Shown here: piece by piece, positions 3,549 to 36,928 of the stretch
Layout of the letters: every line of letters begins with the position of its first letter
Position numbering within the stretch: position 1 is the first letter of the stretch
Source of the DNA: a virus
Length of the DNA: 36,928 nucleotides
Strand: one strand, 5' to 3'
Virus record (IMG/VR): IMGVR_UViG_3300026283_000001
Program-made: the position numbers and the translations under genes
Notes under the pieces: generated by a model
The model's database searches: none
Told to the model about the DNA's origin: nothing
The model's input: only the letters and a program-made list of their open reading frames with translations

Positions 3549-4414
3549 ACTGCATTGATCAAACGGCAGGAGAGGGCTTTGTCCTCTATCACGGAGATTG
3601 CGTCGACGTTCTGCGCGGCCTTCCAGACCAATCTATCCACTACAGCATTTTCTCGCCGCCGTTTGCGAGCCTCTACACCTACAGCAACAGCCCTCGCGAT
3701 ATGGGCAACTGCCGAAGCAATGAAGAGTTTTTCGAGCACTTCGCGTTTCTCGTTGCAGAACTGAAGCGCGTCATGCGGCCCGGTAGAAACGTGTCTTTCC
3801 ACTGCATGCTGTTCCCGGCCAGCAAAGAGCGCGATGGGTTCATCGGCCTGAAAGACTTTCGCGGGGACTTGATTCGGGCATTCCAGGCGCAAGGGTTCAT
3901 CTTTCATGCCGAGACAGTCATCTGGAAAGATCCGGTCACGCAAATGCAGCGGACCAAAGCGCTTGGTTTGCTCCACAAGTCGGTGCGTGAAAACTCCGCA
4001 ATGTGCCGCATGGGAATTCCTGATTACCTCGTGACGATGCGCGCGCCTGGCGATCAACTGGACCGCGTGACGCACACGAGAGATGACTATCCCGTCGATC
4101 GCTGGCAAAAGGTAGCCAGCCCGGTCTGGATGGACATCAACCCGTCCGACACGCTGCAGTATCAATCGGCTCGAGAGCACGACGACGAGCGCCACATCTG
4201 CCCGTTGCAGCTTGAAGTCATTCGCCGCGGCGTCGAACTTTGGACCAATCCCGGCGACGTGGTTCTTTCCCCTTTTGCTGGCATCGGTAGCGAGGGATTC
4301 GTCAGTGTGCAGATGGGAAGGAAGTTCGTCGGAGTCGAGCTGAAAGATTCGTACTACAGGCAGGCGAGCCAGAACTTGGGCGCAGCGCTGCGCACGACTG
4401 GCGAGCTTTTCTGA
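3545..4414 (+). CDS. Beta-class DNA methyltransferase (N4-C or N6-A), no cognate restriction enzyme seen
   Basis: Catalytic motif IV SPPF (nt 3653-3664) precedes the AdoMet motif I FAGIG (nt 4274-4288), the order typical of the N-4/N-6 methylase family. The ATG overlaps the helicase stop (ATGA). Confidence 0.85.
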   Translation: MNCIDQTAGEGFVLYHGDCVDVLRGLPDQSIHYSIFSPPFASLYTYSNSPRDMGNCRSNEEFFEHFAFLVAELKRVMRPGRNVSFHCMLFPASKERDGFIGLKDFRGDLIRAFQAQGFIFHAETVIWKDPVTQMQRTKALGLLHKSVRENSAMCRMGIPDYLVTMRAPGDQLDRVTHTRDDYPVDRWQKVASPVWMDINPSDTLQYQSAREHDDERHICPLQLEVIRRGVELWTNPGDVVLSPFAGIGSEGFVSVQMGRKFVGVELKDSYYRQASQNLGAALRTTGELF

Positions 4415-4820: not shown

Positions 4821-5692
4821 GCGTTGAGGCGATCAATTGGGCATTCGCGCAGCCGGTCGAAAGGTCGGCCGCGAAGTTTGTTCTGGTCGCAATGGCAAGG
4901 CGATGCAACGACGCAAACCTGGTCAATGGAAAGTGGGCATGCTGGCCGTCAATTTCTGCAATCGTTGAAGACACCGGCATGAACAGAAAAACGGTGTTCG
5001 ACTCACTCGCAAGGCTGCAGGAATCCGGCTTCATTTCTGACGTTGGCATGCGCAAAGGCGGAACCGGGAGGGTTGCAGTCTATGCGCTAAACAGTACCAA
5101 AAACGGGACTATTAAACAGTCCCAAAAACGGGACGATTGCGATATTGAAATAGTACCGAAAACGGAACCATTGCCGGGGCTAATAGTACCGATTTCGGAC
5201 ACTAATAGTCCCGAAAACGGTACTGAAATAGTCCCGAAATCGGGACACGGAACAGATAAGGAACAGGAAGGAACAGGTAAACCTAAAAACATTACGCCAC
5301 GCAGCAAGCCGGAAGGGTTCGATTTCAACGGCCGGCTACTGGCCGAGGGTGTCGCAGAAACAGCCGCCCGGGATTGGGCAACCATCCGAAAAGTGAAGAA
5401 GCTCCCGGCAACCCAAACGGCATTTGAAGGGCTTCTGCGAGAAGCGTCGAAAGCGGGCGTCACGCTGCAAGCCGCAGTGACCGAATGCTGCGAGCGAGGG
5501 TGGGGCGGATTCAAGGCCGAATGGCTGGCGAACAGCAAGGCGAGGGCGGGTCCATCGGCGACACCGGCAAAGATCAACGGCAGCACACGGCAATCGAGAA
5601 TCGACAGCTACTGGAACCAGCGCTATGGCAACGAACAGCATCAAGGCAGTGAAGAGCGAGACATCACCGGCGAGTCGGAGCGCGTTGCCTGA
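4817..5692 (+). CDS. Replication initiator, lambda O-like (N-terminal winged-HTH)
   Basis: ORF 4766..5692; I prefer the GTG at 4817 (GTGA overlap with the upstream stop). AINWAFAQP...KFVLVAMARRCN...CWPSISAIVEDTGMNRKTVFDSLARLQESGFI is the HTH pattern of phage/plasmid initiators. Iterons lie inside the gene. Confidence 0.75.
   Translation: MSVEAINWAFAQPVERSAAKFVLVAMARRCNDANLVNGKWACWPSISAIVEDTGMNRKTVFDSLARLQESGFISDVGMRKGGTGRVAVYALNSTKNGTIKQSQKRDDCDIEIVPKTEPLPGLIVPISDTNSPENGTEIVPKSGHGTDKEQEGTGKPKNITPRSKPEGFDFNGRLLAEGVAETAARDWATIRKVKKLPATQTAFEGLLREASKAGVTLQAAVTECCERGWGGFKAEWLANSKARAGPSATPAKINGSTRQSRIDSYWNQRYGNEQHQGSEERDITGESERVA
5094..5246. repeat. Six palindromic iterons AGTMCCRAAAWCGGKAC (candidate origin of replication)
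   Basis: Copies at 5094-5109, 5119-5134, 5153-5168, 5186-5200, 5208-5223 and 5231-5246, each with inverted half-sites GT(A/C)CC...GG(G/T/A)AC. They are followed by 3x GGAACAG (5249-5276), and an A+T-rich patch lies at 5141-5152. Confidence 0.75.
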
Positions 5693-6230
5693 CGCATGGG
5701 TGCGGAGGATTTTCGAGCGCATGGAGGACCGCTACGGCGACCAGTGGGCGCAGAAATTCGGGTCTGTGCCGACGCATCGCATGGCGGCAACGTGGGCTGC
5801 AGACCTCGCGGACATGAGCGGGCCGGAGATTGCGCGAGGGCTCGACGCCTGCAAGGACTCGCGGTTTCCACCTGGAGTCGCTGACTTCCGGGCGATGTGC
5901 CGGCCGCAACTCGATCACTCGGCGGCACTGCTTGAGGCGATCGAGCAGATGCAGCGCAGGGCCAGCGACAGCGACACGTGGAGCCACCCGGCGATCTATT
6001 GGGCGGCAGCCAGCATCGGGTCTTACGAGCTGCTGAACCGATCGACGAAAGAGCTTGAGCCGCTGTGGCGTCGGGCGTTTGTTGCGCAGATGGCCAAAGG
6101 CGAATGGCCGGCGGTACCGAAGCGGGCGCCCGCGCTTCCTGCTCCGGGGCAGCAGCACACCGAGGCACACGCAAAGAAGGTGATGGCCGAGATGATGGCG
6201 AAGCTACGCGGAATGGAGTCGGAGAAATGA
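5625..6230 (+). CDS. Lambda P-like replicative-helicase loader
   Basis: The central and C-terminal parts align by eye with lambda P (W..A....M....I..G...C......FPP..A.F...CR....HPAIYWAA......L......EL......F...MA.GE.P.VP). The start is uncertain: ATG 5625 overlaps the O-like gene by 68 nt, with alternatives at GTG 5700 and ATG 5721. Confidence 0.7.
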   Translation: MATNSIKAVKSETSPASRSALPDAWVRRIFERMEDRYGDQWAQKFGSVPTHRMAATWAADLADMSGPEIARGLDACKDSRFPPGVADFRAMCRPQLDHSAALLEAIEQMQRRASDSDTWSHPAIYWAAASIGSYELLNRSTKELEPLWRRAFVAQMAKGEWPAVPKRAPALPAPGQQHTEAHAKKVMAEMMAKLRGMESEK

Positions 6231-16302: not shown

Positions 16303-17772
16303 ATGGCTAATGTTGCTGTTACTTGCATAAAAAACGGTAGATCAGACTCTTTCGGCCGGCCGCTTGTTTCTGGAACGTATTACCCGTCTGTCGAGATTGA
16401 GACGGCAAAAGCTCTGTGGAATTCCGGGTATGTTTCCGTGGCAGATGCGTCCGTGTTCGACCAAGACCCGCTGGCCGGAACGAGCCCGCTTGACGATTTC
16501 AATATCTCCAGGGCTTTATCTTTAACGCGCCAACCGAGCCAAACTGCAGCCAACATCTCTGCGGAGCTTGCGGCGGTTGGGTTTGGGTCTGGTCCGCGCA
16601 AAATCTACGCAGGGGCAAGCATTGTTGATTGCGGTACGCTTCCACTGGTATCAGGAACCGGCGTTACAGTGGAAATGGTTGTAACACCTCCAGGCGGCGC
16701 ATCCGCCAGGAAGACTAATCACGGACTTTCTGCGAAAGTAGTTAGTCCACCAGGGGCGTCAGCGCAGATTTATGGGGCAATTGCTAACCCAACTTTAGTT
16801 AATGAAAGATTCGATTTTTGGGTATATTCATCAAGTGATAACGAAACTCCTGCAAGCGTCTCGCTCTATTTTGTGGTCGCGTCGGCGTTCGCAGGCAATT
16901 ATTACCTTAAAACGTGGCCTTTAACAAAGAGGGCAGGATGGCATCATCTGTCGTGCTTGAAGTCGGATTTTGAAGCCACGGGGTCTCCGACGTGGGCAGG
17001 AGTGACGCACTACCGGGCATATTTCTTCGACGCATCAGTAACGACATCACTGACGATAGACAGGATAACTGGCGGCGCGAACGAAACACCGTTGGTCGCC
17101 CTTTGTTTTGATGCTTGTTGGGCGGGGCAATATAAATACGCCGTGCAGCTACTGAATAAATATCGCCTAATCGGCAACATCTCCGTAGTGCCTACCGCTG
17201 TAGGCCAGGCATCTTATATGTCTGCAGAACAGCTCAAGGAAGTTGCAGGAATGGGACACAGACTCATCTGCCACGGCAGCAACACGGCAAGCTCTTTTGG
17301 AACACTACAGCTGGCGAAGGACGACTTGGACGCAACAAAAACATACCTTGACTCGTTGGGAGTTCCTGTCGATTCCGATGTTCATCTATGGCATTCCGGC
17401 GAAAGCTGGCATGGGGCAGATTATGAATCCCTCCCGAATTATCTACGTGACACGGGGAGAGTTGGGGCGTTCCATTCTGGGTTGAACATATCAACTTCCG
17501 AGATGCGAGGCAGGGCATACCGAATCCCTCGGATGGACGACAGCGGAAATGGATCAACGTCTTCAGCGACTGTGCTCGCACAGATTGATGGGTTTTTAAC
17601 CGCCGGATACAGTTTTGCGACAAAGACCCATGACGTCGTCGCTAGTGGAGCGACGGTAAGCCAGGCGAATGTAGCCACACTCGAAGCAGTTCTATCGGGG
17701 ATTGCTGACAGGCAGGCAGCGGGGAAATGCCTTGTTGTGAGTGCAAGGGAGTTCGCTATTAGAAATACATAA
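16303..17772 (+). CDS. Low-GC protein: jelly-roll/CBM-like middle region plus C-terminal NodB (polysaccharide deacetylase)-like domain
   Basis: 489 aa with its own RBS (GGAG). From aa ~262, PLVALCFDACWAGQYKYAVQLLNKYRLIGNISVVP...YMSAEQLKEVAGMGHRLICHGSN parallels NodB motifs (TFDDG ... L.k..ikaTfF ... eql.el...GheigsH). Aa ~165-255 look like a carbohydrate-binding beta-sandwich. Confidence 0.7.
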   Translation: MANVAVTCIKNGRSDSFGRPLVSGTYYPSVEIETAKALWNSGYVSVADASVFDQDPLAGTSPLDDFNISRALSLTRQPSQTAANISAELAAVGFGSGPRKIYAGASIVDCGTLPLVSGTGVTVEMVVTPPGGASARKTNHGLSAKVVSPPGASAQIYGAIANPTLVNERFDFWVYSSSDNETPASVSLYFVVASAFAGNYYLKTWPLTKRAGWHHLSCLKSDFEATGSPTWAGVTHYRAYFFDASVTTSLTIDRITGGANETPLVALCFDACWAGQYKYAVQLLNKYRLIGNISVVPTAVGQASYMSAEQLKEVAGMGHRLICHGSNTASSFGTLQLAKDDLDATKTYLDSLGVPVDSDVHLWHSGESWHGADYESLPNYLRDTGRVGAFHSGLNISTSEMRGRAYRIPRMDDSGNGSTSSATVLAQIDGFLTAGYSFATKTHDVVASGATVSQANVATLEAVLSGIADRQAAGKCLVVSAREFAIRNT

Positions 17773-17818
17773 TGCACCTGATGTAGCAAGCATTCGTCAG
17801 GCTGAAAGAGCCCCCTGC

Positions 17819-17830
17819 TTGTAACGTCAA
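17819..17830 (+). repeat. 12-bp direct repeat TTGTAACGTCAA, copy 1
   Basis: Exact 12-mer also present at 18061-18072. The pair brackets most of the 323-bp non-coding gap. Confidence 0.9.
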
Positions 17831-18060
17831 CCCACTCGCCTTATCCGCTTGACACCGCCCGCGTAAAACGACCCCATGGATCCCAACGCCACATGATAAC
17901 CCGCCGCCGAAACATCGATCGATGGCCGCTGGCAAATGACCACAGTCTCACAAGCCTCCGAATACCTCTCGCGCCGGATCGAGCAAGGATTCAGCGACTA
18001 TCAAATCAAGATATGCACCTCGGAATTGAATCTCTACGCCATAGAGGTAGCGAGCGAGGT

Positions 18061-18072
18061 TTGTAACGTCAA
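18061..18072 (+). repeat. 12-bp direct repeat TTGTAACGTCAA, copy 2
   Basis: Exact copy of 17819-17830, located 24 nt before the gp4-like start. Confidence 0.9.
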
Positions 18073-18095
18073 ATGACACAAGAAGGCGATAAAAC

Positions 18096-19202: not shown

Positions 19203-20215
19203 GACTGCCGCTCGCCACTGACCTGAAAACCTCGATCAGCGATACGACGAAAGACGCGCGCCTGATCAATGCACACACGGAAACGCGCGGAGGAGTCACG
19301 AGAGTCAAGAAACGGCCCGGAGCGCTTGCTACCGGGTGGGATTTCACGACGCCCATACAGAGCGGGTTCGGCGGATCGCTGCTTTATCTGATCTACGGCG
19401 ACGAATTCAGCGTGATTGACGTCAGCAGCCCTCCTCCTGCGTCCGTGGCGATAGGCGATCTTGTCGGCGGCTATTACGCGATGATCGACAACCCGCCAAC
19501 GTCGCCTGGTGGTGGCGACGCGTATTGGAGCGCATCGCCCCCTGGAAGTGCCAGGTATGTGGCGACGTTCAAGCCCGGCTATGGAATGGGCGACATCTAT
19601 GGCGGCGCGAATATGTACCTGCCGCCAAGTTCTCCTGGACCATGGTCGGGCGAGCTGCGCGGGGCTGTCGCGGCGAGTACCGCAGCAACCGTCAAAAGTT
19701 TTGACGAAACGATTACCGCGCTTGGTGGAGTTATCTGCTGGGGATCTTCTGGAGGAATACCGCCGAACGGGTCCGGGCCAACGGCGCGATATCTTCCGAC
19801 GGGAATGTATGAATCTGGCGGGTTCATCTTGGCTGCAGACAGTCGAGTGTCGAACGCAACTGTCAACTGGACGGCTGGCTATGTCCCTTCAGCAATCCCA
19901 GCTGTCGGCTCTCCGCTCGGCTATGATATTTTCTCTGGGCCGGCAGCGATCTTAACAAGGAAAACGAAGACGTCGGCAACGATTACCTCTTCTGGAACGG
20001 TCGCAACCATTGGCGTTGGGGTTTTGAGCCCGGCAGCGATCAGCAGGCGAATCGAGGTTTCTGGCGCAAACGAGCCAGAATACAACGGGGTTTTCGACGC
20101 CTACCTGAACGCTAACCCTCTGGCCAGCTCGGCCACTGGCGCGCTCTATTACGACATGACCGGAACGCCAGCGGCAAGCCCTGCGACTGGATCGGTCACG
20201 GTCAAATACTTCTGA
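19199..20215 (+). CDS. Tail hub-associated protein (338 aa): gp10-type N-terminal motif plus C-terminal ~70-aa repeat domain
   Basis: ORF 19184..20215 from the GTG at 19199 (GTGA overlap). VRLPLATDLKTS...ARLINAHTETRGGVTRVKKRPG. Aa ~262-341 of the listed ORF form copy 1 of the EYNG domain. Confidence 0.7.
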   Translation: MRLPLATDLKTSISDTTKDARLINAHTETRGGVTRVKKRPGALATGWDFTTPIQSGFGGSLLYLIYGDEFSVIDVSSPPPASVAIGDLVGGYYAMIDNPPTSPGGGDAYWSASPPGSARYVATFKPGYGMGDIYGGANMYLPPSSPGPWSGELRGAVAASTAATVKSFDETITALGGVICWGSSGGIPPNGSGPTARYLPTGMYESGGFILAADSRVSNATVNWTAGYVPSAIPAVGSPLGYDIFSGPAAILTRKTKTSATITSSGTVATIGVGVLSPAAISRRIEVSGANEPEYNGVFDAYLNANPLASSATGALYYDMTGTPAASPATGSVTVKYF

Positions 20216-20225
20216 GCAGACAACG

Positions 20226-21800
20226 ATGCCAGTCCTCGCCGTGACCGTTGCTGGACAGCCATTCGACATGATGGGGTATGTCGCCGAGCAGTCAGTTTTC
20301 GGCCTGTTCTTCAAATCTGCATACGATGCATTCAATTTCGAGAATAACGTGCTGACAAAAATCACCGACGCAGATTATCCCGGATGGAGCACGGTCACGC
20401 CGACAAGCATAACGCGAACTGGGTCGACTGCGACGGTCACGCTGCCTGCGCCAGTCAACTGGCAATCTGGATCGACCGTGACAATCGCTGGCGCTGCACA
20501 AGCTGAATACAACGGCAGCGTTCTGATTACCGTCACTGATGCGACGCACTTCACTTACGCAGTCACCGGGACTCCGACGACGCCGGCAACGGGCACGATA
20601 ACCGCGAAGGGCGGGCGAACTACGGTGCCAGGGGTCGCCTATCTGGACGGGTATTTCTTCGTCATGGACCAGAATGCCGTTATCTACAACAGCGGGCTGA
20701 ATGACCCGACAGCCTGGGGCGCGCTGGACTTCATAACTGCGGCTATCGAGCCTGGCGGCGGAGTTGCGCTGGCCAAGACGCAGAACTACATCGTCGCGTT
20801 CAAGGAATGGAGCACAGAATTTTTCTACGACGTCGGCAATCCAACGGGGTCCCCGCTGTCGCCTGTGCTGTCCGCATTTACGCTTGTTGGCTGCGCTTCC
20901 GGCGAGTCGGTCGCGGAGCTTGATGAGACGGTCTATTGGATCTCGAAGGCGCGGCAGAAGGGGCGGGCGGTCCACAAAATGGTCGGCCTGCAACAGCAGC
21001 TTGTCAGCACGCCGGACATTGACCGCATCCTGGCAACGTCGGACCTATCGAGCGTCTACGCCTATGGCGTCAAGCTGTCCGGGCATTCGTTCTACATCTT
21101 GGGCCTGCGCGACATTGACGTGACGCTGGCCTATGACGCGACGGCTGGAACCTGGGCGCAATGGTCGAGCTTGACGGCGCAAACGCCGAAGTCATGCACG
21201 CTCACGCAGTCGGGCGGCGTGGCGACCGCGGCATGCACGGCGCACGGCTACGCAGACGGGGCGGCGGTCACGATCGCGGGGGCAACGCCAAGCGACTACA
21301 ACGGCCTGAAACAGATTCGCGTCACATCCGCCGACGCCTTCATATTCAGCGTCGCCAGCGGCGCCGCAAGCCCGGCGACGGGCACGATTACGGCGACCGG
21401 GTACGACGAGGGCTACTTCCGGTACACGCACTATGTGTCTGCGGCCGGCCGCGACCTTGTTCTGCACGAAACGACCGGAGCGCTTGTCGAAATCACTCCG
21501 GCCGCCTACACCGACGACGGCGCCCCGATCGCGCTGAAGCTCCGCACAGGCAAGCTCGACAGCGGCAACGAGAACTACAAGAGCATTGGTCAGATTCGCG
21601 TCATCGGCGAGAAGCAGGGCGGCGAGGCGATGCTGCGATGGTCGGACGACGACTACACGACGAACTCGGCCTGCCGTCCTGTTGATCTGTCGTCGGTGCA
21701 GGCGCGCATTCGGCGGTGCGGGGCGTATCGGCGCAGAAGTTTTGAAGTGCTGCACATCGCCGCATTGCCGGTGCAGCTTGAAGCGCTCGAATTGGACTGA
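20226..21800 (+). CDS. Tail hub protein, P22 gp10-like body with two inserted ~70-aa domains
   Basis: NYIVAFKEWSTEFFYDVGN parallels P22 gp10 DFIVCFGSSTIEYFSLTG. The C-terminus ARIRRCGAYRRRSFEVLHIAALPVQLEALELD parallels KRVGRIRRLIGFKLRVITKSPVTLSGCQIRLE. Confidence 0.8.
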   Translation: MPVLAVTVAGQPFDMMGYVAEQSVFGLFFKSAYDAFNFENNVLTKITDADYPGWSTVTPTSITRTGSTATVTLPAPVNWQSGSTVTIAGAAQAEYNGSVLITVTDATHFTYAVTGTPTTPATGTITAKGGRTTVPGVAYLDGYFFVMDQNAVIYNSGLNDPTAWGALDFITAAIEPGGGVALAKTQNYIVAFKEWSTEFFYDVGNPTGSPLSPVLSAFTLVGCASGESVAELDETVYWISKARQKGRAVHKMVGLQQQLVSTPDIDRILATSDLSSVYAYGVKLSGHSFYILGLRDIDVTLAYDATAGTWAQWSSLTAQTPKSCTLTQSGGVATAACTAHGYADGAAVTIAGATPSDYNGLKQIRVTSADAFIFSVASGAASPATGTITATGYDEGYFRYTHYVSAAGRDLVLHETTGALVEITPAAYTDDGAPIALKLRTGKLDSGNENYKSIGQIRVIGEKQGGEAMLRWSDDDYTTNSACRPVDLSSVQARIRRCGAYRRRSFEVLHIAALPVQLEALELD

Positions 21801-28432: not shown

Positions 28433-28439
28433 CAAATCG

Positions 28440-28470
28440 TTTCAGTAACTTTACTGAAAGGTTTCAGTAA
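28440..28470. repeat. Three copies of the 9-mer TTTCAGTAA in alternating orientation (intergenic)
   Basis: tttcagtaa (28440-28448), ttactgaaa (28451-28459), tttcagtaa (28462-28470). They fill the 36-nt gap between two minus-strand genes. Confidence 0.9.
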
Positions 28471-28471
28471 C

Positions 28472-28735
28472 CTAGCCGCCCCTTGCTCTGATTTCTACTG
28501 CTAGCGCACGAGTCTCATAAAACATCGGAGAGCCTTTGTAAAAAGACCCGTTGGATGTTTTAATCGCTGGCTTCCAATCCATTGTGGTCGGTACGCCATC
28601 AACAATCTTCGCGCACGCCTCAGCAACCAGCTTCGCGAACCGACGCAGATTGTCGTCAGCCCCTGTTACGTTGACCCACTTGCTGCCGTTGTTCAGGCTG
28701 AATCCAGCCTTTTTTGCCATTGCTTCGATGTTCAT
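28472..28735 (-). CDS. Hypothetical protein (87 aa)
   Basis: ORF 28472..28861 from the internal ATG (MNIEAMAKKAGF). ATGA overlap with the upstream gene. Confidence 0.6.
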   Translation of the reverse strand: MNIEAMAKKAGFSLNNGSKWVNVTGADDNLRRFAKLVAEACAKIVDGVPTTMDWKPAIKTSNGSFYKGSPMFYETRALAVEIRARGG

Positions 28736-28938: not shown

Positions 28939-29171
28939 TTTCCGCGCTCCCTGATGCTGTTCATTGCATCCCGTAGCGCTTGGTTGTAGGCCCTGTCGCC
29001 GTCGTTGTCGCAATCGTCGTGCACATCCTCGCCTACGTGCTCGCGCTCGCAAGCGTCGGCGCACGCCTCGCGCTCGATCCTTGTTGCTGCGTCCCATCCG
29101 GCACGCATCATTTCTATATCGTATGCGCCGCCGTTTGGCCCGTGTTTCTGTTGCCATTCTTCAAAAGTCAT
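28935..29171 (-). CDS. Small acidic protein (78 aa)
   Basis: ORF-track entry with RBS AGGGGG. 19 Asp/Glu versus 10 Lys/Arg by hand count (EREACADACEREHVGEDVHDDCDNDGD). Confidence 0.7.
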   Translation of the reverse strand: MTFEEWQQKHGPNGGAYDIEMMRAGWDAATRIEREACADACEREHVGEDVHDDCDNDGDRAYNQALRDAMNSIRERGK

Positions 29172-29236
29172 TTCGCCCCCTAACCCTTTCTTTGCTCGTT
29201 GGTTTCAGTCGGTTGGTGGAAGGTTTCAGTAACCAT
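29172..29236. repeat. ~64-bp intergenic element, copy A (contains two ACTGAAACC direct repeats on the minus strand)
   Basis: tttcgccccctaaccctttctttgctcgttggtttcagtcggttggtggaaggtttcagtaacca is about 90% identical to 29759-29822. Confidence 0.9.
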
Positions 29237-29257
29237 CTGCGTCAGCCTCTTCGCGGA

Positions 29258-29758
29258 TCAATAGTAACCGCCAGCTTTTGATCGTAAAGGCAGCGGCTCG
29301 TTTTTCTGCTTCTCTTGTGCAAGTAGACCCAATGCAATACTTAGGTCAGCACGATTTCGCGCAATGCACTCGGCTGGCGTCTCGCCATCTTTCAGGTATG
29401 GCTGGCAGTCTTCCAGCGCCTTGTAGAGACGGCGGCGCATCTCAAAGCTTCCTTCGTTCCTTTTGGTGCGCTGAGCGACCAAAGCCCTTGCATACTCGTT
29501 CCAGAACTTCACAGCATCGGCAGCTCTGTGGCGGTGGAATTCATCGGGCGGCATGTAGAGCAAACACCCTTCGTTCACGAACCCTTCCTGTGGGCCGAAT
29601 TTCTCGCCGTTGGTGCACATCATCAGTTTGCTGATCGGTCCGTTCTCGAAGTCGTCGCTGAACAGCCAAAGCTCGGCATCTGACCCGCAGACCGGGCACG
29701 GCTCGATTGCGCACTTCGGAATTTCGCCCTTCTTGTACTCTCCATGTTCTGTTCTCAT
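29258..29758 (-). CDS. Lar-like zinc-ribbon protein, extended (166 aa)
   Basis: IEPCPVCGSDAELW...MMCTNGEKFGPQEGFVNEGC...AADAVKFWNEY follows the Lar-family layout (PCPFCG ... C..C ... A...WN) with a long C-terminal extension. Confidence 0.6.
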   Translation of the reverse strand: MRTEHGEYKKGEIPKCAIEPCPVCGSDAELWLFSDDFENGPISKLMMCTNGEKFGPQEGFVNEGCLLYMPPDEFHRHRAADAVKFWNEYARALVAQRTKRNEGSFEMRRRLYKALEDCQPYLKDGETPAECIARNRADLSIALGLLAQEKQKNEPLPLRSKAGGYY

Positions 29759-29822
29759 TTCGTTCCTAACCCTTTCTCTGCTCGTTGGTTTCAGTTGATT
29801 GGTGGGAGGTTTCAGTAACTAC
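29759..29822. repeat. ~64-bp intergenic element, copy B
   Basis: tttcgttcctaaccctttctctgctcgttggtttcagttgattggtgggaggtttcagtaacta. It also encodes the last 20 codons of the upstream gene 29766..30053. Confidence 0.9.
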
Positions 29823-30053
29823 CCTGCGATTCCACGAGTTGCGCACGAGCTGATGGTCGCTAAGTTCGTCGCTTTCCGTTGAGAGATCGACGCTCGGACC
29901 ACCTGTTGAGCACCGCTCACACTCAATCCAGCAAAGTTCGTGCGCGAATCCGTCTCCGTCGTATTCCGGGTCCGACGTATGCTCATAAAGCATTTCAGAC
30001 TCCCCGCAGAACGGGCAAGGTAGCAGGGTGCTGCTTGTAATGCGTTCGCTCAT
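29766..30053 (-). CDS. Lar-family restriction-alleviation-like protein (95 aa)
   Basis: LLPCPFCGESEMLYEH...CWIECERCSTGGPSV...LVRNSWNRR fits the Lar pattern (PCPFCG ... C..C...gp ... WNrR). Confidence 0.65.
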   Translation of the reverse strand: MSERITSSTLLPCPFCGESEMLYEHTSDPEYDGDGFAHELCWIECERCSTGGPSVDLSTESDELSDHQLVRNSWNRRVVTETSHQSTETNEQRKG

Positions 30054-30217
30054 TTCGTCGGCCTCACCTTCTCTCCAATCCGGCGATAAACTGCTTTCGT
30101 CATCTGCTCTTTGCTGTGCCCGAGCAGCCGTTGTGCGTCTTCCAGCTTCATTTCTGATGCCGCCTTCGGTCGAGCGTCACGGAACTGGAACTTGCGAATC
30201 TTGACGGCCAATTCCAT
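30050..30217 (-). pseudogene. Remnant of a phage tyrosine integrase (C-terminal ~55 codons only)
   Basis: The pattern F.F(H/R)D(L/A)R.KAAS......AQ.LLGH....MT..VY.R.....V.P matches the conserved HxLR...LLGH...Y end of phage integrases. No N-terminal or core-binding part exists anywhere in the window. Confidence 0.5.
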
Positions 30218-30469
30218 GTCTCCGCGGTGCTCTGCCTGCTCTGCGGCCTCCTTCCCGTCTCTCATGTTCCACCGAGCGATAGCCTGCGCCTTATCACGCC
30301 CAACACGCTCGATCATGCGCGACGGGCCAGGAATCTCCGCGCACCAGTGGCGCACGCTCCACGATGTCGGCTCGCCGTACTTCATCCCGGTCCATGTCCT
30401 GCCGTTTGGCATAATCTCCGTTGTGCCTGCGCCGCAAAACGGGCAGGGAAGCAGGCTTGTATTCATCAT
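30050..30469 (-). CDS. Chimeric ORF: Lar-like zinc-ribbon N-terminus fused to a tyrosine-recombinase C-terminal fragment (139 aa)
   Basis: N-terminus LLPCPFCGAGTTEI...RHWCAEIPGPS...AIARWNMRD is Lar-like. C-terminus FQFRDARPKAASEMKLEDAQRLLGHSKEQMTKAVYRRIGEKVRPTK is integrase box II-like. Confidence 0.65.
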   Translation of the reverse strand: MMNTSLLPCPFCGAGTTEIMPNGRTWTGMKYGEPTSWSVRHWCAEIPGPSRMIERVGRDKAQAIARWNMRDGKEAAEQAEHRGDMELAVKIRKFQFRDARPKAASEMKLEDAQRLLGHSKEQMTKAVYRRIGEKVRPTK

Positions 30470-30669
30470 TAACCCACTTCCTTCAGCGCCGCATCAGCAA
30501 TCGCCCGGGCACGGTCGATGTTCGGCTCGTCAGCGGCAATGCGCAGCGCGGTTTCGAGTCTTTCGCACCGCCTATGACTTGCTACCAGAAATCCGCGCAA
30601 GCTGGCCAGCTCGACCTTTGCTGTCTCGCTTGTTGCTGCAACGTCATCCAGGTCCAAACTTCCCGCCAT
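30469..30669 (-). CDS. Hypothetical protein (66 aa)
   Basis: ORF 30469..30687 from the ATG at 30669 (MAGSLDLDD). A G9 tract lies 7 nt upstream. The stop overlaps the next ATG (TAATG). Confidence 0.55.
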   Translation of the reverse strand: MAGSLDLDDVAATSETAKVELASLRGFLVASHRRCERLETALRIAADEPNIDRARAIADAALKEVG

Positions 30670-30690
30670 TACCGTACCCCCCCCCAAAAA

Positions 30691-31212
30691 TCAGACCGAC
30701 CAGACAACCGTATGCGTTCTCGTGCTCGTTTTCGCGTTCCAATACTCAATCCCGCCAGCGAGCGTCCTGCGGTGAAAAACGCCGAATTTGCCCTCGGTCA
30801 CGTCTTCCTTGGTGGCTTCCAGCTTTATAACGTCCGCCTTGTTGCGCCCGGCGATAAGCTGCGCTCGTCTTGCCGCCTTGTCGCGCTTCAGTCCGAGGTA
30901 TCCAGCGAACGTCCGAAGGTGTCCGCCCTCCATGTTCAGCCGCTCAGCAAGCTCCTTTGTGTCGCATGTCGCATATTCTTTCCGAATGATGTCCTTCTCG
31001 GCTTCAGTAAGAAAGCGCTGAGTCTTTCCCCTTCTCTGAAGCTCGCCGGATTTAACAAGGCGTGATATTTTGTGGTATGTGGTATCAAGCGATACACCAA
31101 TCTCTTGAGCAATTAGCTTGGTGTTTTTCCCTGCATTATATCCCGCAATGACAATGTGCATTTTGTCCGTCCAGTCAATCGCCTGGCGATTTTGTTTTGC
31201 TTTTGGTGTCAC
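30691..31212 (-). CDS. Low-GC DNA-binding protein with two HTH-like segments (173 aa)
   Basis: IDWTDKMHIVIAGYNAGKNTKLIAQEIGVSLDTTYHKISRL resembles by eye a GcrA-type N-terminal motif (WT.E....L.....G.S...IA..LG.......K..RL). The second segment is LTEAEKDIIRKEYATCDTKELAERLN. Confidence 0.6.
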   Translation of the reverse strand: MTPKAKQNRQAIDWTDKMHIVIAGYNAGKNTKLIAQEIGVSLDTTYHKISRLVKSGELQRRGKTQRFLTEAEKDIIRKEYATCDTKELAERLNMEGGHLRTFAGYLGLKRDKAARRAQLIAGRNKADVIKLEATKEDVTEGKFGVFHRRTLAGGIEYWNAKTSTRTHTVVWSV

Positions 31213-31223
31213 TGTCTTCGCTC

Positions 31224-31682
31224 CTAGAACGGGATATCGTCATCCATGTCTTCAAACGATGGTCGCTTCTTTGCCGCAGCCTGGCCGGTGCTGGCCGGTG
31301 CTGGCCTGCTTTCCTGCTTCCTTGGCGCGCTCTCGCCGCCGCTATCCTGCCGGCCGCCAAGCATCTTCATCTCGTTGCCGGTAATTTCTGTCGTGTAGCG
31401 TTCGATGCCGTCTTTGTCGGCCCATTTGCGCGTCGTCAGCTTCCCCTCGACATATACAGACGATCCCTTCTTCAGATATTTGCCGGCAATCTCCGCAAGC
31501 TGGCGGAAGAAAACGACGCGATGCCACTCCGTTGCTTCCTTCTTCTCTCCGGTCGATTTGTCTTTCCACTGCTCCGACGTAGCCACCTTGATGTTGCAAA
31601 CCGCGTCACCGTTTGGCAGGTAGCGCATTTCCGGGTCGGCGCCCATGTTGCCAATGAGTTGGACTTTATTCAAACTTGCCAT
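31224..31682 (-). CDS. ssb: Single-stranded DNA-binding protein
   Basis: [52 protein letters not shown]...[24 protein letters not shown], plus the acidic tail DMDDDIPF. Confidence 0.95.
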
Positions 31683-31913: not shown

Positions 31914-32366
31914 TTACCGGCAGCGCTGCCCTGTTCCGCCACACCTGCTTGCGCACAGGGTTACGACGCGCATGCATGTGTCCACATCAAACTCTCCGAT
32001 ATGGCACTTTTCCGCATTGATACCAAGGCTGTCTGCCAGCCACTTGTATGCGGCATTTCTCGACATGTCGCCTTCTTGCCAGATTGGGTCGAAGCTTTCA
32101 TGCGCCGCGCTTTTTGCTTCGCGAAGTGCTGCATTGGCGAGGCGACCAAGCGGCCCCGTGCCATCGAGCCCCATGCGCTTATTCGGTTTGTGGCATCCGA
32201 CATAGGCGCCGCAAGGTGCGCACTTCCAAAAGTTCAGCGGGTACAGGCTTGGAATGCGCGGGTATATCTCCTTGCCAGAAGCCATCGCTGACTTCTCTCC
32301 GCAATACGGGCACAGCGGCGTTCTAGCAACCACCGCCGCCTTAAACGCATTGGTTATGACGTTCAT
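31914..32366 (-). CDS. Zinc-ribbon protein (DUF3268-like)
   Basis: ORF 31914..32372 from the second ATG. CPYCGEKSAMASGKEIYP....FWKCAPCGAYVGCHK......PLGRLANAALREAKSAAHESFDPIW......RNAAYKWLA matches my recollection of that family. Confidence 0.65.
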   Translation of the reverse strand: MNVITNAFKAAVVARTPLCPYCGEKSAMASGKEIYPRIPSLYPLNFWKCAPCGAYVGCHKPNKRMGLDGTGPLGRLANAALREAKSAAHESFDPIWQEGDMSRNAAYKWLADSLGINAEKCHIGEFDVDTCMRVVTLCASRCGGTGQRCR

Positions 32367-32563
32367 CTGCAATTCCTCCGATGCGCCTTGCGCCGCTTGG
32401 CTTTGAGTGCCTGGCGCTTGGCATGGGCAATGCCGCCGCGCTGGCCGTTGGTGCTGCTCGCTGTGCTGTCAGGAAGGGCCCACTGGCTCGGGTCGATTTG
32501 AGGCCTTGCCGTGATGGCCGAGAACATCATCCGCAACCAGCTTGAAATAAATGCGCCGCTCAT
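32363..32563 (-). CDS. Small basic protein (66 aa)
   Basis: ORF-track entry. ATGA overlap upstream; its stop overlaps the next start by 4 nt (or 10 nt if the downstream gene uses ATG 32372). Confidence 0.45.
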   Translation of the reverse strand: MSGAFISSWLRMMFSAITARPQIDPSQWALPDSTASSTNGQRGGIAHAKRQALKAKRRKAHRRNCR

Positions 32564-36497: not shown

Positions 36498-36928
36498 TCA
36501 TTGCGCTATGTGCGCGCACAACCTCATCATCTCAGGTTTATTTTCTTTCCAAAACGCCAGCGCTCTTTGTTCCATTTCCGAGATTTCTGAGTCGCTGAAT
36601 TCAACCCATTCGACATGCGAGAAGGACTTGCAGCCAATCGTCATTCGCTCTTTGTCTATGGACACATCCCACGGCTTTTTATGCATGTAGAGCGATCCGC
36701 CGATGCTTGTCGGAAGCGTGATGCCGGTGAGGTCGCACCCGCTCAGGTTGAGCGATCCGCCGATGCTTGTCGGCAGCGTGATGCCGGTGAGGTCGCACCC
36801 GCTCAGGTCGAGCGATCCGCCGATGCTTGTCGGCAGCGTGATGCCGGTGAGGTCGCACCCGCTCAGGTCGAGCGATCCGCCGATGCTTGTCGGCAGCGTG
36901 ATGCCGGTGAGGTCGCACCCGCTCAGGT
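36498..36928 (-). CDS. 3' part of the repeat-solenoid protein gene (last repeats plus a unique 62-aa C-terminus)
   Basis: The frame of listed ORF 36498..36686 stays open upstream through the repeats (...TSIGGSLYMHKKPWDVSIDKER...). Once the 127-nt end overlap is applied it is in phase with 1..1016 (position 5 = 36926). Confidence 0.8.
   Translation of the reverse strand, partial: LSGCDLTGITLPTSIGGSLDLSGCDLTGITLPTSIGGSLDLSGCDLTGITLPTSIGGSLNLSGCDLTGITLPTSIGGSLYMHKKPWDVSIDKERMTIGCKSFSHVEWVEFSDSEISEMEQRALAFWKENKPEMMRLCAHIAQ
36687..36928. repeat. Continuation of the 60-bp tandem array (4 copies)
   Basis: Same unit as 1..980, in the same phase. 36802-36928 is identical to 1-127. Confidence 0.98.

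Follow-up and report, generated by a model that had tools for sequence, protein, structure and literature searches.

The 'integrase' of EBPR podovirus 1 is very probably a deletion-generated fusion of a Lar-like gene to an integrase tail

The window examined here is a stretch of 36,928 nucleotides of virus DNA (IMG/VR record IMGVR_UViG_3300026283_000001). On its minus strand, it carries a 139-amino acid (aa) open reading frame (ORF), gp13 (30050 to 30469), which belongs to EBPR podovirus 1 (EPV1) and has been given the product name 'integrase' in GenBank. It is very probable that gp13 is not an integrase but a fusion generated by deletion, in which a Lar-like protein is joined to the C-terminal relic of an integrase, and that EPV1 is a non-integrating derivative of a temperate, tRNA-Ser-targeting lineage. 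As such, gp13 is an ordinary kind of object, a deletion relic joined to a neighbor gene. The original prediction, made from the letters of the window, had seen here the footprint of a lost lysogeny module and a non-integrating derivative of a temperate phage. The footprint is borne out by synteny with a relative, by a 1,169-bp gap, and by a missing segment of the phage attachment site (attP). The loss of both the integrase gene (int) and attP supports a phage that would be unable to integrate.

Positions 29000 to 31300 of the window are 100% identical to EPV1 (JF412294.1). The window is 98–99% identical to this record throughout, save for one replaced segment (about 16514 to 18091 in the window and 19276 to 21607 in the record). 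The replaced segment fits the genotype-variable region that the 2011 EPV1 paper placed between the coat and stabilisation genes. From this comparison, the window may represent a different EPV1 genotype from the GenBank record. EPV1 has been listed as a complete genome and as temperate, and it was published as temperate because of the gp13 ORF (PMC3097231). The next gene, gp14, is annotated as 'restriction allieviation' in JF412294.

The origin of gp13 can be read from L002, a 10.9-kb contig from a sludge metagenome that is syntenic with the window. L002 possesses, in order, genes for a single-stranded DNA-binding protein (SSB), a gp11-like protein (173 aa), proteins of 87 aa and 124 aa, a Lar protein (77 aa) with its own stop, a DUF4224 protein (58 aa), and an integrase (373 aa), followed by three small ORFs and attP. 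The DUF4224 gene lies directly upstream of int in L002 as well as in L021, another contig; tblastn searches for DUF4224 in the window gave nothing below an E value of 0.3. Positions 4290 to 4610 of L002 correspond to window 30559 to 30239 (93.8%), and positions 5770 to 5970 correspond to window 30248 to 30048 (87.6%). Between these two matching flanks, 1,169 bp of L002 are missing from the window. The missing DNA comprises the stop codon of Lar, the DUF4224 gene, and int codons 1 to 311, and Lar now continues in frame into the final 62 int codons. With the three sequences side by side, the junction (30239 to 30248, minus strand) is an imperfect 10-bp microhomology between GGCCGCAGAG at the end of Lar and GGCAGCGGAG inside int. 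The breakpoint, between 30239 and 30238, is directly before the Lar TGA. The original prediction had looked to relatives with a full int at the syntenic position, and L002 is one that matches both flanks. It had also proposed that a Lar-type cassette replaced most of int. A chimeric Lar-int ORF did arise through deletion, but nothing was replaced by Lar, which was already present upstream as a separate 77-aa neighbor.

The same junction was found repeatedly. DNA pattern scans identified seven distinct, diverged alleles of the Lar-int fusion in several other metagenomes, and the junction is identical in all of these alleles (class A). Across JGI, ENA, NCBI, and Logan assemblies, 14 independent contigs carry the exact gp13, and most of these contigs are phage-sized (28–38 kb).

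The integrase-derived tail comprises codons 78 to 139 of gp13 (30053 to 30238, with the stop at 30050 to 30052, minus strand). By BLASTP, blastn, and synteny, it corresponds to residues 312 to 373 of the full integrase. The C-terminal end of gp13 is ...KIRKFQFRDARPKAASEMKLEDAQRLLGHSKEQMTKAVYRRIGEKVRPTK and that of the L002 integrase, a full-length PF00589 protein of 373 aa at the syntenic position, is ...AAEQAEQRGDMDLAGKIRRFQFRDARPKAASEMKLEDAQRLLGHSKEQMTKAVYRRVGEKVRPTK. Residues 75 to 139 of gp13 are identical to residues 309 to 373 of the L002 integrase at 60 of 65 positions (92%; BLASTP E value 5e-39 and tblastn E value 4e-33), and blastn found the tail nucleotides to be 87.6% identical to L002 5770 to 5970. 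This identity, together with the syntenic position, shows that the segment descends from a PF00589 member. The claim that the last 55 or so residues are the box II end of a tyrosine integrase was confirmed, although the remnant is slightly longer than had been proposed, at 62 codons. Pfam with the tail alone was set aside as proof of homology, as it is too weak to decide. The tail falls at the correct profile positions of PF00589 (143 to 167 of 172) but scores below the cut-off (E value 0.067–0.078 and 13.2–13.4 bits against 27.1 bits). The full 139-aa ORF had no PF00589 match in a Pfam scan. PHROG 1, 'integrase', matched the tail with an E value of 0.002, and a PDB sequence search of gp13 returned only spurious matches to designed and RING proteins.

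The tail retains part of the catalytic residues of a tyrosine recombinase. These are Arg-II (R100 of the motif R97-D-A-R100; 30170 to 30172), the LLGH histidine (H118; 30116 to 30118), and the nucleophile tyrosine (Y128; 30086 to 30088), all on the minus strand. The L002 integrase aligns with lambda Int (E value 1e-7). The two Arg residues of RDAR correspond roughly to His308 and Arg311 of lambda Int, respectively, with a local offset of a few residues, and the LLGH histidine sits at lambda His333. The alignment stops just before lambda Tyr342, and Y128 was assigned as the nucleophile because it is 10 residues after the histidine, as in lambda Int. The histidine and the position of the tyrosine are thus retained, as had been claimed. 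RDAR, on the other hand, had been taken as a decayed HDLR, and this does not hold. The intact integrases of L002 and of L015, a second contig with a full-length integrase, carry FQFRDARPKAAS, and all 120 of the best full-length homologues carry R-D-x-R (73 RDIR, 25 RDAR, 13 RDSR, and others). Judging from these sequences, an Arg at the usual His position is native to this integrase clade.

The rest of the integrase is absent from gp13. Arg-I (TAQRVAD), the catalytic Lys (QGKTSK), the core-binding domain, and the arm-binding N-terminus (MRPKS..LPPRL..KSGKVWTSYYY) are all missing. From the complete catalytic set (Arg-I, Lys, H/R-x-x-R, His/Trp, and Tyr), only R-x-x-R (97 to 100), H118, and Y128 are present. 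The N-terminal arm-binding and core-binding domains were not found in the window either; tblastn with the two full integrases gave significant matches only inside gp13, from about residue 309 of the L002 protein or in the last 110 or so residues of the L015 protein. The claim that no N-terminal or core part exists in the window was therefore correct. From tyrosine-recombinase biochemistry, the tail would not recombine DNA. Because it is without Arg-I, Lys, and both DNA-binding domains, gp13 would be unable to recombine, bind, or cleave DNA. AlphaFold gave no confident fold for the tail (pLDDT 38–67), and the model is uninformative on the function of the tail.

It appears that the lost integrase was of the lambda-type, tRNA-targeting kind (PF00589), for which lambda Int is the closest solved structure. 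The tail is nearly the C-terminus of a full member, the full relative aligns with lambda Int through RDxR and LLGH, short of the catalytic Tyr, and the full relatives adjoin tRNA-Ser, with a tRNA-Ser 3′ fragment in their attP. Two differences were found. With only the last 62 residues, gp13 is a fragment rather than a member, and the clade itself has Arg for the usual His of HxxR (120 of 120 with RDxR). The reverse course of evolution, in which int was built up from the tail, is ruled out since full-length homologues are widespread and adjacent to tRNA-Ser.

The N-terminal part of gp13 (codons 1 to 77; 30239 to 30469, minus strand) is a complete Lar-like zinc-ribbon protein minus its stop codon, as seen from Pfam PF14354 and the L002 orthologue. 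Residues 5 to 70 match Lar_restr_allev (PF14354) with an E value of 3.2e-7 and 30.9 bits, above the 28.6-bit cut-off, and cover profile positions 2 to 57 of 58. PHROG 599 was also matched (E value 3.7e-10). The nucleotides are 93.8% identical to those of the free-standing 77-aa Lar gene of L002, whose product ends in ...DGKEAAE. AlphaFold predicts a small, beta-rich, confidently folded module (pLDDT 84–93 over most of the Lar part). The likeness to the Lar protein of the Rac prophage and its family is that the N-terminal 70 residues pass the family threshold and that a free-standing 77-aa orthologue exists. In contrast to that protein, gp13 bears a foreign C-terminal extension of 62 aa and is one of three to four Lar-like paralogues in a row. 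Restriction alleviation is putative in the gp13 subfamily, taken from the family name alone. The intact Lar-like domain would probably retain the putative anti-restriction or zinc-ribbon role of the free 77-aa protein. The run of Lar-like zinc-ribbon paralogues (29258 to 30469 and 31914 to 32372, minus strand) consists of the gp13 N-terminus, gp14, gp15 (weak), and gp9, a DUF3268 protein with a weak Lar match.

EPV1 has lost its attP as well. In L002, a non-coding stretch about 0.7 kb downstream of int, past the three small ORFs, holds the 3′ part of tRNA-Ser(CGA) on the opposite strand. The fragment contains the anticodon stem-loop, the long variable arm, the T arm, and the 3′ strand of the acceptor, and has no 5′ half. 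L015, which has a different backbone, possesses the same fragment 0.3 kb downstream of its int; a compensatory change in the T stem distinguishes the two fragments. Full-length homologues (53–61% identity) adjoin an opposite-strand tRNA-Ser gene in nine of ten betaproteobacterial genomes. This genomic context indicates that the integrase clade targets tRNA-Ser and that the attP core is the 3′ 60 or so nucleotides of the tRNA-Ser gene.

In L002, the attP segment is 241 bp long and is flanked by direct repeats, GGTTACTGAAACGATT, of 16 bp. The window contains the empty site (28439 to 28472, minus strand), identified by comparison with L002 and marked by two GTTACTGAAAC repeats that in relatives flank the 241-bp tRNA-Ser(CGA) segment. 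Here the left repeat region abuts the sequence that lies beyond the right repeat, and exactly 241 bp are absent. The original prediction held that the remnant marks where attP might have been. The attP sites of relatives lie 0.3–0.7 kb downstream of the int stop, and the empty site is about 1.6 kb from the remnant. Its suggested location, 29800 to 30700, can be rejected: no tRNA gene and no tRNA-Ser fragment were found there or anywhere else in the window, and the window has no attP core of the kind that exactly matches a host tRNA 3′ end. The fragment, present in L002, L015, and several relatives, is likewise absent from every contig with the exact gp13. It has been kept in the int-deleted contigs L004, L009, L018, L020, L021, L023, L024, and L026. 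Because some int-deleted lineages retain attP, the loss of int and the loss of attP are separate events. A perfect palindrome, TTACTGAAA-CC-TTTCAGTAA, lies inside GGTTACTGAAAC repeats (28450 to 28472, minus strand). Its motif occurs four times in 28.4–29.8 kb, against 0.05 expected, and flanks attP in relatives. It may be an operator or an integrase-arm-type site.

From the relatives, the events can be reconstructed as follows. The far end of the leftward early operon of the ancestor held, in lambda-like order, Lar, DUF4224, a tyrosine integrase, a few small cassette genes, and attP. One deletion removed the 1,169 bp between the imperfect 10-bp microhomology and fused Lar to the tail of int. 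The phage's RecT and exonuclease could promote such short-homology recombination. A second loss, of the 241 bp between the two 16-bp direct repeats, took attP. Without attP, a helper integrase would not integrate EPV1 either.

Deletions of this int are not limited to the EPV1 junction. At least eight junction classes of the same int were found. They include fusions to Lar, to the start of DUF4224, to a gp12-like gene, and to an 82-aa gene, as well as four internal int deletions. In class A, which contains the window gp13 and the seven alleles from other metagenomes, the 77 codons of Lar are joined to the last 62 codons of int. In class B (L008–10, L020, L021, and L026), int codons 1 to 49 are joined to about 299 to 373, and Lar, DUF4224, and attP are kept. 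Class C (L012–14) joins LPPR to MLRF.... In class D (L004, with L015 as the intact counterpart), the start of an 82-aa DUF4224-like gene is followed by about 83 C-terminal int codons. In class E (L011), the first 24 codons of a gp12-like gene are joined at nearly the same point as in the window, and L016–19 carry a version of this class frameshifted by 1 nt. The first four DUF4224 codons are joined to the last 59 codons of int in class G (L037). About 35 N-terminal and 33 C-terminal codons remain in class H (L035), and 12 N-terminal and 25 C-terminal codons remain in class I (L029). The right breakpoints are 76–273 nt from the stop, and no class retains fewer than 25 C-terminal codons. The breakpoints of classes A and E nearly coincide because of a GCAG-rich stretch (GCAGCGGAGCAGGCAGAGCAGCG).

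Some of these classes were found with a homologue search using the 62-aa tail. It returned seven proteins, which gave extra deletion classes but are not a census of lengths. In a protein-cluster look-up, the clusters were heterogeneous and contained unrelated proteins, so that member counts are not counts of fusions. The class B deletion appears as 'mini-integrase' ORFs of 123–124 aa in L020, L021, and L026 (for example, L021 2314 to 2742, minus strand), in which the 49-aa arm-binding N-terminus is in frame with the last 75 residues. In this region, these genomes share about 95% identity with the window, and they still carry Lar, DUF4224, and attP.

The end of int has a further feature. Its last seven codons (EKVRPTK) and stop form a 24-nt 'linker', GAGAAGGTGAGGCCGACGAAATGA (30050 to 30073, minus strand), that was recognized by sequence comparison. 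In the linker, a Shine-Dalgarno-like AAGGTGAGG is separated by an 8-nt spacer from the ATG of gp14, which overlaps the TGA (ATGA). gp14 (29766 to 30053, minus strand) is a second Lar-like gene (95 aa; PF14354, E value 2.3e-11) whose start overlaps the gp13 stop. With up to four mismatches, the linker also ends two unrelated genes of 92 aa (...LDKEKVRPTK) and 78 aa (...TSKERVRPTK), and the gene that follows it varies among genomes, with at least eight different ones. It can be regarded as a module-boundary sequence, as one short sequence occurs at the boundaries of non-homologous genes in several genomes. A deletion that took the linker away would silence the cassette behind it, which in this genome is gp14. 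The two other frames of the tail stop 60–130 nt early. Translation that stays in frame as far as the ATGA would keep the translation of gp14 coupled, which would explain both the surviving 3′ end of int and the in-frame fusion; the tail would otherwise be passenger sequence. A promoter embedded in the tail is unsupported, as a promoter scan of 29600 to 30800 found no sigma-70-like site inside the tail.

In one proposed model, conserved boundary sequences direct homologous recombination to the junctions of phage gene modules (PMC3233612). The EPV1 lineage resembles this model in that a short gene-end sequence is common to unrelated genes and is followed by varying genes. It differs in that the linker is the last seven codons of the integrase itself plus an overlapping start, and in that the linker copies at the ends of other cassette genes resemble small relics of int that were duplicated. 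From its distribution, we infer that recombination occurs at the linker. A second gene-end repeat of about 75 nt, RGTTACTGAAACCTYCCACCAAYCRACTGAAACCAACGAGCARAGAAAGGGTTAGG..CGAAATGA, is present at 29755 to 29830 and 29168 to 29245 (minus strand). It joins gp14 to gp15 and gp15 to gp16. This repeat encodes the gp14 C-terminus, ...VTETSHQSTETNEQRKG, which is also found at the C-terminus of unrelated gp16-like proteins on other contigs.

Other integration or immunity functions were sought in the rest of the genome. Pfam scans of about 36 window ORFs found a methylase, a PDDEXK nuclease, RecT, a YqaJ exonuclease, SSB, a P22_Cro-type regulator, and helix-turn-helix proteins. These scans identified no recombinase and no CI-type repressor, in agreement with the claim that a repressor is missing. 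The P22_Cro-type protein is the only immunity-type regulator recognized in the window. Both ends of the window lie inside one 60-bp tandem array, and independent assemblies with gp13 gave contigs of 35.8–38.4 kb. Because of the shared end array and these contigs, the genome is closed and has no room for a hidden int. A full-length integrase elsewhere, which the original prediction had named as evidence against itself, was not found in the window.

The 60-bp array (about 20 copies; 1 to 981 and 36690 to 36928) is open on the minus strand as a protein with a 20-residue repeat. The translation reads MKTAQKIIEAYDGGSLNLSGCDLTGITLPTSIGG, followed many times by (S/W)L.L.G(C/F)DLTGITLPTSIGG, and is leucine-rich-repeat-like. 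It is unannotated in JF412294, which begins inside the array. L016 has three ORFs with faint leucine-rich-repeat or pentapeptide matches at the same place. With the Cro gene on one side and the leftward early operon on the other, the array occupies the position of the immunity region in lambdoid phages. AT-rich tandem repeats are also present in the rightward early region (5088 to 5174), with periods of 25 and 34 nt and about two copies each (TAAACAGTACCAAAAACGGGACGAT).

Mycobacteriophage D29 is, relative to L5, a non-lysogenic deletion derivative of a temperate phage. EPV1 resembles D29 in its temperate architecture, with divergent early operons, Cro, and an int that is distal in relatives, and in that simple deletions have removed part of the lysogeny apparatus. 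It differs in that EPV1 lost the integrase and attP rather than only a repressor, and in that natural sludge populations show at least eight independent deletions of int in the EPV1 lineage. EPV1 reached 70% of the metagenome reads at a reactor crash (bioRxiv 10.1101/2022.10.01.510452). This bloom fits lytic growth, or a non-integrating phage, without proving it.

Several observations weigh against a non-lysogenic EPV1 and against a tail that is only a relic. The repressor search was limited to the Pfam scans described above. Lysogeny without integration, for example as a plasmid prophage, may be possible. One contig of 84,932 bp, more than twice the length of the genome, is recorded with the exact gp13 (protein P0246); it could be a concatemer or could represent host context. 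With respect to the tail, all eight junction classes have in-frame versions, which would have a chance of about 1.5e-4 if the frame were free, a probability that is somewhat biased since the classes were discovered through predicted proteins. In-frame reading of the tail is therefore under some selection. Among the fusion alleles, the tail has 23 variable codons with six amino acid changes, and the Lar part has 27 with 15. The pairwise ratio of non-synonymous to synonymous substitution rates (dN/dS) of the tail is about 0.1–0.2, lower than in the Lar part, and taken alone this resembles purifying selection.

The in-frame classes and the low dN/dS could point to a functional tail peptide. As a dominant-negative partner, it could interfere with the assembly of related tRNA-Ser integrases encoded by resident prophages or by competing phages; alternatively, it could modulate Lar. 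The segment that bears the catalytic Tyr and the C-terminal strand is kept in every class. As is known from lambda Int and Cre, this segment contacts the neighboring protomer in lambda-type integrases. However, the low dN/dS is not decisive because tail alleles recombine within a pool to which intact integrases also belong. Between the window and L022, there are no differences in Lar and seven in the tail, between L023 and L024 there are none and 22, and multi-nucleotide tail haplotypes are common to deletion classes and intact genes. With such clear recombination in the flanks, dN/dS was set aside as proof of selection on the tail. Deletions can also be very recent, as L004 (deleted) and L015 (intact) share the same backbone and are identical over the final 186 nt. 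Depending on the class, 25 to about 90 codons have been retained, which means that no fixed domain is preserved, and the frameshifted version of class E occurs on at least 10 contigs. Changes private to the remnants are about six non-synonymous to four synonymous, too few for significance, and some are non-conservative; they include G89V in the window, an R-to-P change beside the Tyr, and an R-to-L change. The low structural confidence of the tail does not favor a folded peptide either. A functional tail is therefore considered unlikely, as is its specific form, in which the Tyr helix and the C-terminal strand would serve as a phage-encoded decoy acting in trans on related tRNA-Ser integrases. 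In a less novel version, the tail may be only a translated spacer with its linker, which keeps translation coupled and allows downstream anti-defense genes to be swapped.

It is far less probable still that gp13 is a working, unusually small integrase, as the GenBank product name has it and the 2011 paper assumed, and that EPV1 is temperate. The Arg-II, His, and Tyr positions are kept. However, only 62 of 373 residues are present, Arg-I, the catalytic Lys, and both the core-binding and the arm-binding domains have been deleted, the PF00589 score of 13.4 bits is far under the cut-off, attP is absent, and the tail is of low structural confidence. Hardly any weight can be given to an artefact of assembly or annotation that hides separate Lar and int genes: the record, labelled 'partial sequence', comes from a metagenome assembly, and similar samples also contain close relatives in which the two genes are separate, but the identical ORF occurs in 14 contigs from different samples and assemblers, seven diverged alleles share one junction, and the contigs of 35.8–38.4 kb that carry gp13 have no room for a 1.2-kb insert.

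The interpretation of gp13 as a deletion relic affects how EPV1 is classified. EPV1 is the reference Accumulibacter phage of phosphorus-removal reactors, and gp13 was the only ground for placing it in the temperate class. Because the ORF is a 62-codon relic and attP has also been lost, this basis is gone. Short 'integrase' calls that span only box II can mislead lifestyle prediction in the same way, and several database entries for such relics carry the name 'integrase'. Intact, partly deleted, and fully deleted versions of this integration module coexist and provide a natural series on the change from temperate to non-lysogenic phage in engineered ecosystems. With the repeated in-frame deletions, the series could also show in what way deletion and gene shuffling are limited and directed by conserved linkers at gene ends.

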